Assembly: GCA_018830525.1 (NCBI GenBank)
Contig: JAHJSH010000035.1
Span: forward strand, 5,582-69,581
DNA length: 64,000 bases
From: Nanobdellota archaeon
Lineage (GTDB): Archaea; Nanobdellota; Nanobdellia; Pacearchaeales; GW2011-AR1
Reading direction: 5' to 3'
The notes below the pieces were generated by a model. It did not search any database. It worked only from the letters and a program-made list of their open reading frames with translations, and was not told the origin of the DNA. How positions within the stretch are numbered: position 1 is the stretch's first letter; each line of letters starts with the position of its first letter. The translations under genes were made by a program, and so were the position numbers. Shown one piece after another: positions 37,765 through 43,008 of the stretch.

Positions 37765-37941
37765 ATGAGTATTAATTCTTTGGATGATGGATTAGAAGGA
37801 AAGTGGGTTATACTTCTTAATGAACATATTATAGATTCAGGAGAGAATATAAAAGAATTAGTTGAGAGAGCAAAAAAATTGTATCCTGATAAAAAATTAA
37901 CTCTTGCAAAAGTTCCTACCAAAGAATCTATGATTTATTAA
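37765..37941 (+). CDS. DUF5678-like small protein (58 aa, below the ORF-track cutoff)
   Basis: MSINSLDDGLEGKWVILLNEHIIDSGENIKELVERAKKLYPDKKLTLAKVP... Stop TAA lies 1 nt before the next ATG. Paralog of 38876..39115. Confidence 0.5.
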   Translation: MSINSLDDGLEGKWVILLNEHIIDSGENIKELVERAKKLYPDKKLTLAKVPTKESMIY

Positions 37942-37942
37942 A

Positions 37943-38371
37943 ATGGTTCTCTCTTTTAGATATCATGTTATCCCCGATGTAACAAATGGGGAGAAAAAAC
38001 CCACAATTCCTGTTGAGTTTAAATTAGAATCGGGAGGATATATTGAAGTAATGTGCTTAGTCGATTCAGGATCTGATGTAGTAGTATTGCCAAAAGGAAT
38101 TGCAGAATTACTCAATCTTAATTTGGGAGAAGAATCAAATTCATTGGGGATTGGTGGAGAAGTTCCAGTAAGACTTAGCAGGGCATCTTTTAGGATAAAA
38201 AAAGAGCATGGATACCATACTCTAACAGTTCCTGTTGAAGTTTTTAATACAGATAACATTCCAGTCTTATTGGGCAGACAGGGTTTTTTTGATAAGTTTA
38301 AGGTTACTATTGATGAACGGGATAAAAAGGTAATACTAAAAGAACATAGTTCTCGAATTTCTAGCAGATAA
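37943..38371 (+). CDS. retropepsin-like aspartic protease
   Basis: Active-site context VMCLVDSGSDVVVLP and a later ILGR-type flap region (VLLGRQGFF). Confidence 0.65.
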   Translation: MVLSFRYHVIPDVTNGEKKPTIPVEFKLESGGYIEVMCLVDSGSDVVVLPKGIAELLNLNLGEESNSLGIGGEVPVRLSRASFRIKKEHGYHTLTVPVEVFNTDNIPVLLGRQGFFDKFKVTIDERDKKVILKEHSSRISSR

Positions 38372-38875: not shown

Positions 38876-39115
38876 TCAGAATAATATTGTGGTTCCTTCA
38901 GGATAAACGAATTCTATAAACATGAATTGTGAATCTTCCCCCTTGCTTTCCAGTATCTCTACAACTTTATTGATATCTTTATCAAAAGCTATAGGCCTTT
39001 CATCCTTTATAGCAACGAATTTCCCAGTTAAACTTTCTTCCCTTAATTTATTAATATTACCATAGAACCATTCGCTATTTTTTTCAAATTCATCAAAAGC
39101 TTGAGAACTATCCAT
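38876..39115 (-). CDS. DUF5678-like small protein
   Basis: ...LTGKFVAIKDERPIAFDKDINKVVEILESKG... Stop TGA lies 2 nt before the protease ATG. Confidence 0.55.
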   Translation of the reverse strand: MDSSQAFDEFEKNSEWFYGNINKLREESLTGKFVAIKDERPIAFDKDINKVVEILESKGEDSQFMFIEFVYPEGTTILF

Positions 39116-39229: not shown

Positions 39230-39700
39230 ATGAAGGTGAATTGGCTTTTGCTGATTGGTTTTATTGTTGCGTGTAACTTGATTGGTGCTCTTGGTGCCAT
39301 ATGGACTTCTTCTGACAGTTCTTGGTATAAGGGAATTAATAAGCCGAGTTTTAATCCGCCGAGTTGGATTTTTGGGCCGGTTTGGACTTTGTTATTTACG
39401 TTGATGGGGATTGCGTTGTATCTTGTTTGGGTTGCACCTTCGTCTAAGATAAGAACTATTGCATTGGTTATATTCGGAATTCATTTTGTCTTGAATGTTC
39501 TATGGAGTTATTTATTTTTTGGTGCGAATAATCCTTTAGCCTCACTTATAGAAATATTTGTTTTGTTGGTGTTTATCGTTGCTACTGGAATTTATTTTTA
39601 CATGATTAATCGTTTTGCAGGATATTTATTCATTCCTTATTTTCTCTGGGTTGCTTTTGCTAGTTTTTTGAATTATTCTATTTGGAATTTGAATAAGTAG
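39230..39700 (+). CDS. tspO: TspO/MBR tryptophan-rich sensory protein
   Basis: WY..L.KPSFNPPSWIFGPVWT.LY..MG signature and 5 TM helices. ATG 39230 lies about 25 nt after TTTTATAAAG. Confidence 0.85.
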   Translation: MKVNWLLLIGFIVACNLIGALGAIWTSSDSSWYKGINKPSFNPPSWIFGPVWTLLFTLMGIALYLVWVAPSSKIRTIALVIFGIHFVLNVLWSYLFFGANNPLASLIEIFVLLVFIVATGIYFYMINRFAGYLFIPYFLWVAFASFLNYSIWNLNK

Positions 39701-39701
39701 G

Positions 39702-40727
39702 TTATAATGATGGTTGGGGGCCAAATTCTCTCCATTCAACCTTGAAATCCATGAAGTCTATTTCTGCAAATCGGTTGTAATTTCTTTTTCCTTTATCTAT
39801 TAAATGTTTGAAAATTTCCATTACTTGAATATTCGCGACTGCTCCTGCAATTGGCCCAAGACTCCCAGTTTGTTCTATGTCTTTAATCATTTCAAATCCC
39901 TTTAGAGGATCGTTTTCTTTTTGGAATCTTAGGAAATCTTCAAACTTTGCAGTTTTCCCTGGCATGATTATTGGACCCACCATCCCAAGATGCATATTGT
40001 ATCCCCCAGCAACACAATAAGGAACATTATATTTTGTCGCAAAAGTATCTATGATTTTAGTGGTTTCATGAATTGAAGGGTTATCTGCACAATTCACTAA
40101 GAAATCCACTCCTTTTACTAAGGGAGTTAAATCTTGGCTTTCTGAGACCCAATTCTTATAAGAGTTTATATTTGCATTAGGAAGTTTTTCTTTCATGACA
40201 TCCACCTTATATTTTCCAATATCTCCTTCGTTAAAGAAAAGTTGTCTATTCAAATTGGATTCTTGGACTACATCTAGATCAGCTATATTTATTGTTCCAA
40301 TACCTATTTGATAAAGGCCGTTAACCATCCAAGTTCCAATTCCCCCAACCCCGAAAACACTGACTTTTGATGTTTGTAATTTTTTCTGAAGTTTTAGGGT
40401 TTCATCCCAGCTATCAGTTAATTCATCTATAAATGATATTTGTCTTGCAAATCTTTGATTGGTATATTCGTTGTAAGTTCTCACAATTCCTTCTTTTTCT
40501 AGGGCACTGAGACAAACCGAAATATTTTTTGAGTCAAACTTTGATTCGAGATTTTTAATAACTTGGCTTCTATTCGATTCATCTTTTAATTCGTCAATTA
40601 ATCCTTTTACTAAACCATCCACATTATATGTTTTAATCTTACGAGTGTTCGTAAAAACCACATGGTATTTATCTTCAGTTTCTTTTAGAATATATGCAGA
40701 TTCTCTTAGCCTTAATTTTTCTTGCAT
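39702..40727 (-). CDS. ThiF/MoeB/E1-like adenylyltransferase with about 100-aa N-terminal extension
   Basis: VFGVGGIGTWMV (GxGxxG), DLDVVQESNLNRQ, NCADN. No CxxC zinc motifs. Overlaps the upstream gene by 16 nt. Confidence 0.8.
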   Translation of the reverse strand: MQEKLRLRESAYILKETEDKYHVVFTNTRKIKTYNVDGLVKGLIDELKDESNRSQVIKNLESKFDSKNISVCLSALEKEGIVRTYNEYTNQRFARQISFIDELTDSWDETLKLQKKLQTSKVSVFGVGGIGTWMVNGLYQIGIGTINIADLDVVQESNLNRQLFFNEGDIGKYKVDVMKEKLPNANINSYKNWVSESQDLTPLVKGVDFLVNCADNPSIHETTKIIDTFATKYNVPYCVAGGYNMHLGMVGPIIMPGKTAKFEDFLRFQKENDPLKGFEMIKDIEQTGSLGPIAGAVANIQVMEIFKHLIDKGKRNYNRFAEIDFMDFKVEWREFGPQPSL

Positions 40728-41308
40728 ACAGAAACCTCGGAAAATTTAATGAATCCGTCTTCTGGAGGGCCCAGAATAAGATCACCACTTTTATCCGTAG
40801 GAATTATAAGTAAATATTCTGGAAAATCTCTCAAAGGGCTTTCTTTTCTCAAGTGCCATGAACCAGTAATTACTAAAATAGGTTTTTTGGAAATATTAAA
40901 ATATTTTTGAATTTTATTTTTTTGAGTTTGTTCTCTTTTTTCTTGGAGAGATGCTATTTCTTGAATTTCTTTTTCAGAAGGTTCTTTTTCACCCTTAACA
41001 ATTTTTTGAAGATCTTCCCCTAGTCCAAAATTTTTTAAGTCTATTCCAATAAGTTTGATATTCTTTGATTTACATAAATGAATAATATTTTCTACTTCTT
41101 CAAAAGAGGTCATATTAGAAACTAATTTAGAATTTAATAGTGATTCAAAATCTTCTTTATCTAATAGTTCTAGGTCGTTTAATTGTTCATATAAAACATA
41201 CTCTGGACTAAATCTTTCTATTAGTTCTTTCTGTTTTTCAAAGTCGTTTATGAAGCCGTGGGTGTCACCTAAGAAAATTAGCTTCAATTCATTAGAATTT
41301 GTTGCCAT
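40712..41308 (-). CDS. Tiki/TraB/ChaN-superfamily-like protein (putative metalloprotease)
   Basis: LIFLGDTHG ... EYVLYEQL ... VITGSWHL fits the GxxH...E...GxxH pattern recalled for this superfamily. The gene call is solid; the function is tentative. Confidence 0.45.
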   Translation of the reverse strand: MATNSNELKLIFLGDTHGFINDFEKQKELIERFSPEYVLYEQLNDLELLDKEDFESLLNSKLVSNMTSFEEVENIIHLCKSKNIKLIGIDLKNFGLGEDLQKIVKGEKEPSEKEIQEIASLQEKREQTQKNKIQKYFNISKKPILVITGSWHLRKESPLRDFPEYLLIIPTDKSGDLILGPPEDGFIKFSEVSVCKKN

Positions 41309-41443
41309 TTACATCCAATACATTATACTTGTTCCGCCTTGATAGTCTTGGGAAGAAACGAGTTGTAAACCTTCATAAGAAGATTCTTGCGTTCCAACCT
41401 TAGATATCTTGCTTTCGCCTACGGAGGATTCTAAAGATTCCAT
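41309..41443 (-). CDS. 44-aa Gly-Gly peptide, candidate precursor/substrate (below the ORF-track cutoff)
   Basis: MESLESSVGESKISKVGTQESSYEGLQLVSSQDYQGGTSIMYWM. Its TAA directly abuts the next ATG (TAAATG). CTTATATAT lies about 25 nt upstream of ATG 41443. Confidence 0.45.
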   Translation of the reverse strand: MESLESSVGESKISKVGTQESSYEGLQLVSSQDYQGGTSIMYWM

Positions 41444-41583
41444 GATTTTTAAGGGAATCTTAGATATATAAGGATTTCGTAGATAGTATAGATAATTTAT
41501 CTTAATCCAACACCTAAATATATCATTACTATCAAGTAGTGCAAAACACGAAGTCTTATATAGGCACTTTTCGAATTTTTATT

Positions 41584-43008
41584 ATGGGATTTAAATCACT
41601 GAAGATTATTGAGCCGATTTTGCGTTCTCTTGAGAAAGAAGGATATACGAAACCGACGCCAATACAAGAGAAAACTATACCTTTATTGTTAGATAATAGG
41701 GATGTAATTGGGATTGCGCAGACTGGAACTGGGAAGACTGCGGCATTTGTTGTGCCTATTTTACAGAAATTGCAAGAGAGGACGAAGGGTTTGAAAAGTA
41801 AAGACCCACGAGTTTTAGTTTTAGCACCGACGAGAGAATTGGTGGCGCAGATATCTGAGAGTTTTGAGAATTATGGAAGATTTCTTAATTTTAGACATTT
41901 AGCAGTTTATGGTGGGGTTGGAATTGTCCCCCAGATTAGAACCTTACAACGAGGAGTTGATATTTTGATTGCTACTCCCGGTCGTTTGATGGATTTGATG
42001 AATCAGGGGAAGGTAAGTTTGAGAAATGTTGAATTTTTTGTTTTAGATGAGGCAGATAGAATGCTTGATATGGGATTTTTGCGGGATGTTAAGAAAATTG
42101 CTTCGGCATTGAAAGTTGAGAAACAATCTTTGTTTTTTTCGGCTACTATGTCTAATGAGATTGCGGACTTGACTAGAGATTTTTTGAGGAATCCTGTTCG
42201 TGTCGATATTACTCCCGAATCTAAGGTGGTAGATAAAATTGAGCAATGTGTTTTCTTTATTGACCAGAATGATAAGAATGAGTTGTTGTTGGATTTGATT
42301 AAGCAACAGAATATGAATCGTGTTTTGGTTTTTGTTGGAATGAAATATCGAGCTGACAAGGTTGTTAGAGTTTTGGAGCAAAATGGTGTGAGTGCTGATG
42401 CTATTCATGGGAACAAGTCTCAGATTCAGAGGACACGAGCATTGAATAATTTTAAGGATGGGAAGGTTAGGGTTTTGGTTGCGACAGATATTGCGGCTCG
42501 AGGAATTGATATTAAAAATATTGGGCATGTGATTAACTATGATTTGCCGAATGAACCTGAAAATTATATTCATAGAATTGGGCGGACTGCTAGGGCGGGG
42601 AAGGATGGGACTGCATATTCTTTTTGTGAAGCTCAGGATAGAAATTTTTTGAATCAGATTGAGAGAATTACTAAACGGAAAATTGAACATGCAGATCATA
42701 AGTATCATTCTATTGCAGCAAAAAATGCTGAAGGTGATGACGCTAAACCGGCTCCACGAAATGGTCGGGGCGGAAGAAGTTTTGGTAAAAGACAAAGAGG
42801 TCGGGGCGGAAGTGATGGCACCTTCACAAATAGAAGAAGAAAATTGGTTGGGGCAGGCCCTCGGGGAAATGTTCGAAGCAGGGGACGGGGAAATGCTCGG
42901 GGAAATGGCGGTCATGGAAGGTCTTCAAGAAGTGGTGGTAGTTCATCTAGAAGTATGAGAAGTGGAAGAAGTAGGTCTGGAAATAGTTCTGGGCGAAGCA
43001 GACGATAA
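41584..43008 (+). CDS. DEAD-box ATP-dependent RNA helicase with RG-rich tail
   Basis: AQTGTGKT, PTRELV, DEAD, SAT, HRIGRTARAG. Start set at Met16. Confidence 0.9.
   Translation: MGFKSLKIIEPILRSLEKEGYTKPTPIQEKTIPLLLDNRDVIGIAQTGTGKTAAFVVPILQKLQERTKGLKSKDPRVLVLAPTRELVAQISESFENYGRFLNFRHLAVYGGVGIVPQIRTLQRGVDILIATPGRLMDLMNQGKVSLRNVEFFVLDEADRMLDMGFLRDVKKIASALKVEKQSLFFSATMSNEIADLTRDFLRNPVRVDITPESKVVDKIEQCVFFIDQNDKNELLLDLIKQQNMNRVLVFVGMKYRADKVVRVLEQNGVSADAIHGNKSQIQRTRALNNFKDGKVRVLVATDIAARGIDIKNIGHVINYDLPNEPENYIHRIGRTARAGKDGTAYSFCEAQDRNFLNQIERITKRKIEHADHKYHSIAAKNAEGDDAKPAPRNGRGGRSFGKRQRGRGGSDGTFTNRRRKLVGAGPRGNVRSRGRGNARGNGGHGRSSRSGGSSSRSMRSGRSRSGNSSGRSRR

Follow-up and report, generated by a model that had tools for sequence, protein, structure and literature searches.

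A three-gene unit of a DPANN archaeon that looks like a ThiF-type peptide maturation module

The three-gene unit and its transcript

The stretch of DNA analysed here (the window) comprises 64,000 nucleotides of contig JAHJSH010000035.1 from a Nanobdellota archaeon (assembly GCA_018830525.1) and carries on its minus strand three tightly packed genes, which encode a 44-residue peptide, a 198-residue protein and a 341-residue ThiF-family E1-like enzyme. We suggest, with a probability of roughly 0.6, that this triad is a self-contained ThiF-like (TLAT) maturation module, specific to DPANN archaea, for a ribosomally synthesised and post-translationally modified peptide (RiPP), in which the enzyme would cyclise the C-terminus of the peptide and the 198-residue protein, a predicted hydrolase, would process it. 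The elements of the unit are located as follows.

39702..41472, minus strand: whole unit, a putative promoter and three coupled genes, whose order and tight spacing are kept in homologues
41472-41464, minus strand: TATA-like box CTTATATAT, read from the sequence, the putative promoter element
41309..41443, minus strand: peptide precursor gene, 44 residues plus stop, from the list of open reading frames (ORFs), its orthologues and codon-level purifying selection
41342..41377, minus strand: leader motif Y23-E-G-L-Q-L-V-S-S-Q-D-Y34 of the peptide (consensus Y-x-G-[LF]-x-[KL]-[VIL]-E-[DE]-x-x-[YF])
41312..41332, minus strand: C-terminal heptapeptide T38-S-I-M-Y-W-M44 (TSI[KRM]YWM in the family), whose TAA stop abuts the next ATG
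40712..41308, minus strand: middle gene, a predicted minimal Tiki/TraB/ChaN-fold hydrolase of 198 residues, from alignment, AlphaFold2 (AF2) and Foldseek
39702..40727, minus strand: ThiF-family E1-like enzyme gene, 341 residues
40413..40727, minus strand: N-terminal domain of the enzyme, residues 1 to about 105, a winged-helix domain like a peptide clamp or RiPP recognition element (RRE), by predicted fold
39723..40394, minus strand: ThiF adenylation domain of the enzyme, residues 112-335, from Pfam, invariant columns and alignment with MccB motifs

An earlier note on this DNA, made from the sequence alone, had described three coupled minus-strand ORFs, and our re-reading of the sequence agrees. 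The peptide gene (translation MESLESSVGESKISKVGTQESSYEGLQLVSSQDYQGGTSIMYWM in the ORF list of the window) ends in ...TGG ATG TAA ATG GCA..., so that its TAA abuts the ATG of the middle gene (TAAATG), and the middle and E1 genes overlap by 16 nucleotides (40712-40727). In homologous loci the gap between the peptide stop and the next start is 0-22 nucleotides, and the E1 start lies 4-35 nucleotides inside the middle gene. The TATA box that the note had placed about 25 nucleotides upstream of the peptide is also there, TTATATAT occupying -28..-21 relative to the A of the ATG; most of 38 homologous upstream regions have a TATA-like box (tttatata or cttaaata) at about -29..-22, preceded by A-rich positions -33/-32. 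Such a distance from the ATG is the spacing expected of leaderless archaeal mRNA and implies, as a reasonable inference from the sequence, that the transcript of the window copy is leaderless or near-leaderless. The term leaderless operon, used in the earlier note, is thus reasonable for the window but not universal among homologous loci, since about 8 of the 38 upstream regions have instead GGAGG at -12..-7 and a TATA box near -50.

The 198-residue protein is deposited at NCBI as hypothetical protein KKF50_05630. The peptide was called unannotated, and it is missing from the NCBI annotation, but JGI/IMG and ENA gene calls, and these only, record the exact 44-residue product without a name. 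No second copy of the E1 gene, the middle gene or a ...YWM peptide was found when the window was searched for them.

The peptide and its partner proteins

A small ORF lies directly 5' of the homologue of the 198-residue gene in about 40 loci from different DPANN genomes, and in all the fetched loci except three an ORF ending in YWM-stop stands immediately upstream of the middle gene. Looking for the triad in other archaeal genomes had been proposed in the earlier note; the small ORF is indeed conserved, in the same gene order, in dozens of them. In the first three distant relatives examined (41-49% identity in the middle protein) the middle gene is directly preceded by a gene of 46-47 residues and directly followed by a ThiF gene of about 335 residues; their peptides end ...YEGLxL[IV]E..Y.G[GP]TSIKYWM. 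A profile of the peptide matched 269 members of a collection of 5.8 billion proteins at E<=10. Counts for database tails below refer to the best 120 of these 269 matches (all with E<=1.2e-12; 110 distinct tails) and those for loci to an alignment of 39 distinct full-length peptides; positions are counted back from the C-terminus (Met = -1).

The consensus of the 120 database peptides is Y-x-G-L-x-x-[VIL]-E-[DE]-x-x-Y-x-G-[PG]-T-S-I-K-Y-W-M-stop; the last three residues are [YF]WM in 119 of them. T-7, W-2 and M-1 are invariant in the database tails and Y-3 nearly so (Phe once in 120); Y-22 occurs in 109 and G-20 in 108 of the 110 distinct tails, whilst Lys-4 is swapped for R, M, V, Q or S and Ser-6 for G, N or P. 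The locus-derived peptides give the same picture: Y-22, G-20, T-7, Y-3, W-2 and M-1 are invariant, S-6 is kept in 38 of the 39 and I-5 in 37, the N-terminus is M-E-x-L-E and the linker varies in sequence and length. The window peptide carries Ser-Ser at -15/-14, where most members have Glu-Asp. By analogy with RRE-dependent RiPP enzymes, the leader motif is presumed to be the recognition sequence for the N-terminal domain of the E1-like enzyme.

Both mechanisms offered in the earlier note turned on a Gly-Gly in the peptide: either a double-glycine leader is cleaved off to release the C-terminal core, or cleavage exposes a Gly-Gly C-terminus for activation by the E1. Gly-Gly is not, however, a feature of the family. 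Of the 110 distinct tails, 54 have Pro at position -8, 50 have Gly there and 5 have K, R, Y or S; position -9 is Gly in 96, hence not invariant, and the two together are Gly-Gly in a minority. With Pro at -8 as often as Gly, we reject the first mechanism and exclude the second as a general one, although a version of it without Gly-Gly survives as the tagging rival weighed below. The note had also asked whether the small ORF, its Gly-Gly and its aromatic tail are conserved; the ORF and the tail are kept and the Gly-Gly is not. As judged from the alignments, the conserved element of the family is its extreme C-terminus.

The codon usage bears on whether the ORF is translated as such. Over the last 22 codons the entropy at position 3 is 1.14 bits, against 0.70 at position 1 and 0.57 at position 2, and invariant or conserved residues are encoded by synonymous codons (Gly-20 by GGA, GGG, GGT and GGC; Ser-6 by AGT, AGC and TCA). 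Selection therefore acts on the peptide as a protein, and on this codon-level evidence the small ORF is a real gene.

The 341-residue enzyme matches the Pfam ThiF family (PF00899, 142 bits, E 1.8e-41) over residues 112-335. It has, as the earlier note described, the E1 motifs GVGGIGT, DLDVVQESNLNRQ and NCADN, and with three cysteines (C72, C213, C238) it has no CxxC zinc motif. In an alignment of 39 homologues (56-89% identity) G126-x-G128-G129-x-G131, N160-R161-Q162, K174 and D215 are invariant, and these ATP-binding residues align with the NLTRQ, GKxK and ADxP motifs of MccB. The sole invariant cysteine is C213, in the nucleotide-binding motif NCAD; there is no CxxC pair and no conserved cysteine in the crossover loop.

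The note had compared the N-terminal extension of the enzyme with the peptide-binding domains of MccB and PaaA, and this has stood up well. The closest PDB relative by sequence (phmmer) is MccB (E 2e-19), with an alignment that starts at residue 65, inside the extension; the next matches are Uba1 adenylation domains and then PaaA. The AF2 model (mean confidence, pLDDT, 91) has an N-terminal domain (residues 4-85; strands 4-7, 11-17, 20-25 and 30-35, helices 38-46, 53-60 and 66-78, strand 82-85) followed by a Rossmann-like domain. In Foldseek, MccB and PaaA chains make up all of the top 26 PDB matches and align over about 350 columns with a template-modelling (TM) score of about 0.74, whereas ThiF, MoeB and Uba5 align over about 260-285 columns. 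On the predicted structure, given this full-length alignment, the extension is a peptide-clamp (RRE-like) domain of the MccB/PaaA type. Its invariant residues in the homologue alignment are S10, Y12, I13, L14, Y21, T26, R29, L39, K41 and I44. The adenylation domain also shows 26% identity over 230 residues to that of IndF, as measured against an IndF sequence derived by optical character recognition from a published supplement (PMC12150305). Because this match is about as close as that to MccB, we place the enzyme, by sequence, in a separate clade of the class to which IndF and MccB belong.

The middle protein had been assigned to the Tiki/TraB/ChaN superfamily, and its motifs and relatives point the same way. 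Among 39 homologues T16 and H17 (GxTH), D22, E41, D90, R125 and G149-x-x-H152-L153-R154 (GxWH) are invariant, in the pattern GxTH...E...R...GxWH; two His and one Glu of the 2His/2Glu set are kept, a set that is essential in RRSP, a proven TIKI-family endopeptidase (PMC6254334). The AF2 model (pLDDT 93) is a compact alpha/beta domain, and its four best Foldseek matches other than KaiC, weak but agreeing with one another, are RRSP (6a7h), ChaN (2g5g), HopBA1 (5t09) and the Pasteurella toxin PMT (2ebf), all members of the TIKI/EreA/ChaN superfamily (PMC6254334). The Pfam score of the window protein itself lies under the gathering threshold (ChaN, E 0.0013, 19.2 bits against 27.7; PF04187/PF01963 missed). 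An exhaustive profile search of 1.84 billion representatives, however, returned 200 relatives, the more distant of which bear canonical GE[TS]HG and GxxH motifs, and some of these exceed the TraB_PrgY_gumN or ChaN gathering scores (P0346 28.5 against 26.8; P0412 33.9 and P0428 29.8 against 27.7); the superfamily membership of the window protein is therefore transitive. From its motifs, its relatives and these weak fold matches, we regard the protein as a minimal member of the Tiki/TraB/ChaN hydrolase superfamily.

The 80 database relatives of the 198-residue protein all come from metagenome-assembled genomes of Nano-, Pace- or Woesearchaeota type. When one genome per species was scanned, the protein turned up in 43, most of them so labelled, the only exceptions being one 'bacterium' and three 'uncultured Methanosarcinales'.

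Conservation, decay and surroundings of the triad

The triad is intact and in the same order in 29 of the 46 distinct loci reached via the middle protein, and five more meet contig ends; two further loci, found by starting from the E1 and including a marine one on a Tara contig, also hold it complete. All-against-all clustering of the ORFs of 46 loci finds the middle gene in 44 and E1 in 35, and no other gene family in more than five. The earlier note had named findings that would speak against its own view, and none of them has materialised: the small ORF is conserved, the extension is like a peptide clamp, the 198-residue protein does not model as a non-hydrolase fold, and no ThiS, MoaD or small archaeal modifier protein (SAMP) gene and no sulfur-transfer gene is present in the 46 loci. 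On this comparison of loci, the triad is a self-contained, dispensable module.

Its dispensability is seen in about 12 loci that show decay. E1 is frameshifted in L016, L024 and L040, shortened in L027 and absent from L005, L019, L030, L036, L039, L042 and L043, and loci without E1 often have a degraded peptide too. Thus L019 holds a core relic of the peptide without a start codon, and L005 (3930-4570) keeps an intact middle gene and a 17-residue ORF, MINKRSYSDGTSIMYWM, which retains the core and has lost the leader motif. In L030 (3995-4546) and L039 (3848-4423) the middle gene is intact with neither peptide nor E1. The opposite pattern is found in L045 and L051, where E1 is intact, the peptide truncated or absent and the middle gene disrupted.

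Beside three of the triads that lost E1 (L036:4597-6846, L042:187-1932, L043:1220-2899) lies a common cassette of a protein of about 360-390 residues (MLEPSLRD..., MEQVQTQ... or MTSLDSLL...) and two or three small proteins, which may be a mobile or replacing element. In L001 (404-1678) a radical S-adenosylmethionine (SAM)/SPASM gene stands beside a 48-residue ORF less than 3 kb from the triad, and a radical SAM gene is found about 4 kb downstream in L003 (8350-8579) and L004 (7643-7872). The ORF clustering shows the L001-type family to be common to only four loci, and it is probably a separate peptide-modification locus outside the module.

A divergent version of the module occurs on a contig of 48% GC (L055:1506-4312). 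Its peptide ends ...RYSGLRVLETSPYKGPTSRLYWK (...YSGLRVLETSPYKGPTSRLYWK; ...GPTSRLYWK), with a C-terminal Lys and not Met, so that T-7, Y-3 and W-2 persist while the last residue changes. A 309-residue gene without a family or Pfam match follows the peptide and separates it from the other genes. The Tiki-like gene is on the opposite strand (24% identity; GETHG...GAFH, the family motifs aligning), and the E1, 44% identical over its full length, retains two CxxC pairs. The locus is rearranged yet complete, and therefore the three components stay together despite rearrangement. A metagenome scan for further Lys-ended members (GPTSxxYWK-stop) gave 39 stretches, 9 of them in frame, none with the leader motif. 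Among the distant Tiki-like relatives examined, only L055 repeats the association with peptide and E1. P0346 and P0351 are on contigs too short to tell; P0361 (L053/L054; L053:2845-4151) belongs to a tandem pair of Tiki-like paralogues (217 and 216 residues) that directly follows a gene for a subtilisin-type peptidase (Peptidase_S8). No ThiF gene lies near this pair or near P0380, nor in the P0409 locus, which contains genes of bacterial type (those for SmpB and for ribosomal proteins L20 and L35).

In the window, Pfam places the unit where the earlier note had it, between plus-strand genes for TspO (PF03073, E 7e-46) and a DEAD-box helicase (PF00270, E 1.4e-51). The stops of tspO (39698-39700, plus) and E1 (39702-39704, minus) face each other 1 nucleotide apart, and the convergent transcripts must therefore overlap or end inside each other's coding region. 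The helicase (41539..43008, plus) ends in an RGG/RS-like low-complexity region, about 90 residues long, in which Arg-Gly and Arg-Ser abound (...GRGGRSFGKRQRGRGG...RSSRSGGSSSRSMRSGRSRSGNSSGRSRR). At 37765..38371 (plus) a 58-residue DUF5678 gene (PF18929, E 1.8e-13) is followed 1 nucleotide later by a 142-residue retropepsin-like aspartyl protease (PF13650, E 6e-6); the two genes may form a module. About 0.5 kb off, the opposite strand carries a second DUF5678 gene (38876..39115, minus).

Proposed maturation, rival explanations and known systems

TLAT RiPP pathways form a class defined by the enzyme, with MccB, PaaA, GrcB, EnfB and IndF as members. The peptide carries a leader, one of its carboxylates is adenylated by the RRE-ThiF enzyme, and AMP is then displaced by a nucleophile (PMC12596934, PMC12250964). 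IndF adenylates the C-terminal Ile of ...NWYFI to give a Trp-Ile indolylamide, in a cluster of precursor, ThiF, M16 peptidase and transporter (PMC12150305), and EnfB, acting on a ...WWIVI C-terminus, is proposed to form a macrocyclic imide or else amidates it with external amines (10.1101/2024.05.13.593846). The window locus has the corresponding features: an intact ThiF domain, a fused RRE-like domain (by fold) and an adjacent precursor with a conserved leader and C-terminal motif.

We propose that a TATA promoter about 25 nucleotides before the first ATG would drive a leaderless tricistronic mRNA with three translationally coupled ORFs. The precursor, divided according to conservation, consists of an MExLE N-terminus, a variable linker, the leader YxGLxx[VIL]E[DE]xxY and the tail G-[P/G]-TSIKYWM-COOH. 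The modelled N-terminal domain of the 341-residue enzyme would bind the leader motif, and the ThiF domain with ATP-Mg would adenylate the alpha-carboxylate of the C-terminal Met, which we favour because it is the sole invariant carboxyl near the core (the window peptide having Ser at both -15 and -14). Side-chain adenylation in the style of PaaA or GrcB is unlikely, the sole frequent acidic pair (-15/-14) not being invariant. A nucleophile within the peptide would then capture the acyl-adenylate to close a C-terminal macrocycle, 18 Da lighter. The invariant possible nucleophiles are Trp-2, Thr-7, Tyr-3 (with its one Phe) and the backbone amides; Lys-4 and Ser-6 both vary and are unlikely. Candidate products are an indolylamide through the indole nitrogen of Trp-2, as made by IndF, a seven-residue macrolactone through the hydroxyl of Thr-7, or an imide through a backbone amide, as proposed for EnfB. 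Finally, the 198-residue Tiki-fold protein (His17/Glu41/His152) would remove the leader or, less likely, hydrolyse the product. For Tiki/TraB proteins of graspetide loci a leader-peptidase role has been predicted but not demonstrated (PMC8939145), and in the literature we came across no Tiki-fold protein with experimental proof of such activity on a RiPP.

That the core hardly changes over more than 100 variants points to a single conserved target or receptor, the product being a signal, an effector or cofactor-like, rather than for a diversifying antibiotic, whose core would be expected to vary more. In its most specific form our proposal is a first archaeal class of ThiF-type RiPP, in Woese-, Pace- and Nanoarchaeota, in which TSIKYWM is cyclised (Trp, Thr or a backbone amide to Met), released by the Tiki-like protein and used as a signal, effector or cofactor, not as an antibiotic, given how little the core differs between more than 100 lineages of genome-reduced archaea; we put this forward tentatively, as a possibility that may well prove wrong in one part or another.

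Several observations weigh against the maturation module. The chemistry of the product is entirely inferred. An IndF-like indolylamide to the adjacent Trp would be a strained nine-membered ring, while IndF closes a four-residue ring, and RiPP natural products do not typically have so invariant a core. In the 46 loci the triad has no linked gene for transport, immunity or regulation, unlike in bacterial TLAT clusters, and if the middle protein served purely to remove the leader, the lone intact middle genes of L030 and L039 would be hard to reconcile with that. By sequence, the N-terminal domain yields no significant RRE or PqqD match (Pfam; a 20-sequence profile against the PDB), the best real PDB match of its profile being a weak one to the winged-helix regulator LrpC (E 0.079). 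In the middle protein the first Glu of the TIKI 2His/2Glu set is absent, position 15 being variable (GxTH, not GExH), and its Foldseek matches to the superfamily are weak (E about 0.01, probability 0.9+, TM about 0.4).

The lone middle genes bear most directly on a reading in which the E1 biosynthesis is the same and the Tiki-like protein serves in immunity or turnover, by hydrolysing or sequestering the product. Together with L005, where the middle gene is kept with the core mini-ORF only, these genes resemble orphan immunity genes. Enterococcal PrgY/TraB is thought to limit endogenous pheromone, and erythromycin esterases open a macrolactone; both offer an analogy for such a role. The superfamily holds esterases besides proteases (PMC6254334), and erythromycin-esterase homologues in graspetide loci have been suggested to confer self-resistance (PMC8939145). 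In nearly all loci, however, the middle gene lies between those for precursor and enzyme and is coupled to them in translation, the protein appears cytoplasmic (its model has no extra N-terminal segment), and genomes seemingly without E1 may carry it elsewhere. We consider this role for the protein unlikely, though it deserves to be kept in mind.

Rather less probable is that the E1 activates the Met and passes the 44-mer to an external amine, as a tag on a protein lysine, a lipid or a small molecule or as simple C-terminal amidation, with the Tiki-like protein deconjugating or processing it. C-terminal activation for transfer is the ancestral task of the E1 superfamily, EnfB amidates the C-terminus of its own peptide with primary amines in vitro (10.1101/2024.05.13.593846), an invariant tail with no linked exporter suits an intracellular role, and frequent loss of the module suits an accessory regulator. 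The 44-mer would then be a minimal modifier like ubiquitin or Pup; its variable-length linker, however, does not suggest a folded beta-grasp domain, and its tail is bulky and aromatic, not Gly-Gly. The enzyme has no conserved catalytic cysteine for a thioester, C213 being in the NCAD motif, and its closest structural relatives are RiPP enzymes with a leader-binding domain. Neither an E2-like partner nor a target gene is linked in the 46 loci.

MccB is the best match of the enzyme by both sequence and structure, which raises the question of whether AMP or another nucleoside monophosphate is attached to the C-terminus, to make a microcin C-like Trojan-horse mimic of an aminoacyl-adenylate directed at Met-tRNA synthetase; the invariant last residue (Met, or Lys in L055) would specify a single aminoacyl-tRNA synthetase. 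The stable N-P bond of microcin C, however, forms via a succinimide and depends on a C-terminal Asn with its carboxamide (PMC12596934, PMC12250964), where the archaeal peptides have Met or Lys, and a plain acyl-adenylate is hydrolytically labile. No genes like MccC, MccD, MccE or MccF are linked in the 46 loci, and the 26% match to IndF is as good as that to MccB, so we give this idea little credence.

An ordinary sulfur-carrier or ubiquitin-like-activating enzyme (ThiF, MoeB or UbaA), next to which small ORF and middle gene would be incidental, has in its favour the Pfam domain and the names given to family members by NCBI and JGI, and is contradicted on several counts: scores far under every curated equivalog cut-off of NCBIfam (ThiF 101.7 against 275, MoeB 79.7 against 376.6, UbaA 81.4 against 450 bits, with MoeZ and TcdA thresholds likewise far off), an additional MccB-like N-terminal domain of 105 residues, the lack of ThiS, MoaD and SAMP genes at the 46 loci and of a rhodanese domain, CxxC pair or conserved crossover cysteine, and strict linkage to a conserved non-beta-grasp peptide without Gly-Gly. 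Known anti-phage defence, such as the E1-E2 protein Cap2 of CBASS, was also rejected: PADLOC gave only partial similarity to E1-E2 models in the nucleotide-binding region (at most 49 bits) and no match for the peptide or the middle protein.

The earlier note knew of no characterised system of this architecture. This needs qualification, as bacterial IndF and EnfB were characterised in 2024-2025, when ThiF-like RiPP enzymes were first seen as a broad class. The enzyme logic is thus already known; the archaeal host, the TSIKYWM precursor type, the Tiki-type hydrolase partner and the absence of a zinc site appear to be new, and the triad looks like the first archaeal example of bacterial ThiF-type peptide modification. 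Mining studies of ThiF-like RiPPs were confined to bacterial RefSeq or to lactic acid bacteria (PMC12150305; 10.1101/2024.05.13.593846), which left a gap that the archaeal family fills. ThiF goes unmentioned in a survey of archaeal RiPPs, as do both ThiF and MccB in a 2026 preprint on archaeal bacteriocins, and full-text literature searches for ThiF-like RiPPs of archaea brought up nothing pertinent. The names under which databases list members of the family ('SAMP-activating enzyme E1', 'molybdopterin/thiamine biosynthesis adenylyltransferase', 'uncharacterized iron-regulated protein', 'kynurenine formamidase') mislead, and none of them agrees with the evidence gathered here.

To our knowledge, few members of the Tiki/TraB superfamily have a known biochemical function. 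The triad offers a concrete candidate substrate for a minimal prokaryotic protein of this fold and, if our proposal is true, the 198-residue protein would be the first Tiki-fold enzyme with an assigned peptide substrate. DPANN archaea have very small genomes and are commonly regarded as symbionts of other microbes; a module that is dispensable yet widely kept, with a nearly frozen peptide, hints at a role in interaction between cells. The tail is unlike that of every characterised type, which makes new ring chemistry plausible, and the system is tractable, with a compact three-gene unit and a 44-residue substrate that is easily synthesised.

Set against known systems, the enzyme shares with the archaeal pairs UbaA-SAMP, MoeB-MoaD and ThiF-ThiS the ThiF adenylation fold and the likely first step, adenylation of a C-terminal carboxylate, but the substrate in the triad is neither beta-grasp nor Gly-Gly-ended, and the enzyme, which misses the curated thresholds, lacks catalytic Cys, rhodanese domain and zinc site and has an extra, predicted leader-binding domain. 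With MccB (microcin C7) and PaaA (pantocin A) it shares peptide clamp and adenylation domain over the full length as well as the ATP-binding residues. MccB requires a C-terminal Asn and makes a phosphoramidate, whereas the archaeal tails end in Met (119/120) or Lys (L055); PaaA adenylates the Glu side chain of an EEN motif that the archaeal peptides lack; and no mcc or paa accessory genes are linked to the triad in the 46 loci. The CxxC motif of MccB, PGKTGCYEC, reads PGKTAKFEDF in the 341-residue enzyme, so that the latter has no zinc site.

The middle protein has the two GxxH motifs, the Glu and the Arg of the Tiki/TraB/PrgY/ChaN/EreA superfamily, in which its predicted alpha/beta fold finds its top, though weak, matches. 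It differs in being a bare core without appended domains, in having GxTH instead of GExH, and in that a putative dedicated peptide substrate is encoded immediately upstream.

The enterofaecin system ('WWIII type'; reviewed in PMC12250964 and PMC12596934) resembles the proposed pathway in that a ThiF-like enzyme, EnfB, adenylates the C-terminal carboxylate of an aromatic and hydrophobic tail, as would the archaeal enzyme, with capture either within the peptide (the proposed backbone imide) or by external amines. Its host is bacterial, the precursor EnfA has just 21 residues, and its cluster lacks a peptidase but includes four transporters together with quorum-sensing regulators.

The ind cluster of Streptococcus pneumoniae (IndA/IndF/IndP, 'NWYFI type', PMC12150305) differs from the triad in its host, Streptococcus as opposed to DPANN archaea; in its Trp, at -4 in IndA (...TTNWYFI) and at -2 in the archaeal peptide; in its C-terminal Ile or Val in place of Met (Lys in one variant); in the two CxxC pairs of IndF, of which the 341-residue enzyme has none; in an M16 (insulinase-type) zinc peptidase where the archaea have the 198-residue Tiki-fold protein; and in a transporter and regulator that are not linked to the archaeal triad (46 loci). 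The plan is nevertheless alike: a short precursor, a two-domain RRE-ThiF enzyme and a peptidase, with an acidic leader and a Thr-rich, aromatic, hydrophobic tail containing Trp (EDTTNWYFI in IndA, G[PG]TSIKYWM in the archaeal family). The chemistry of the ind system begins at the C-terminal alpha-carboxylate, and that proposed for the archaeal module would begin there too.

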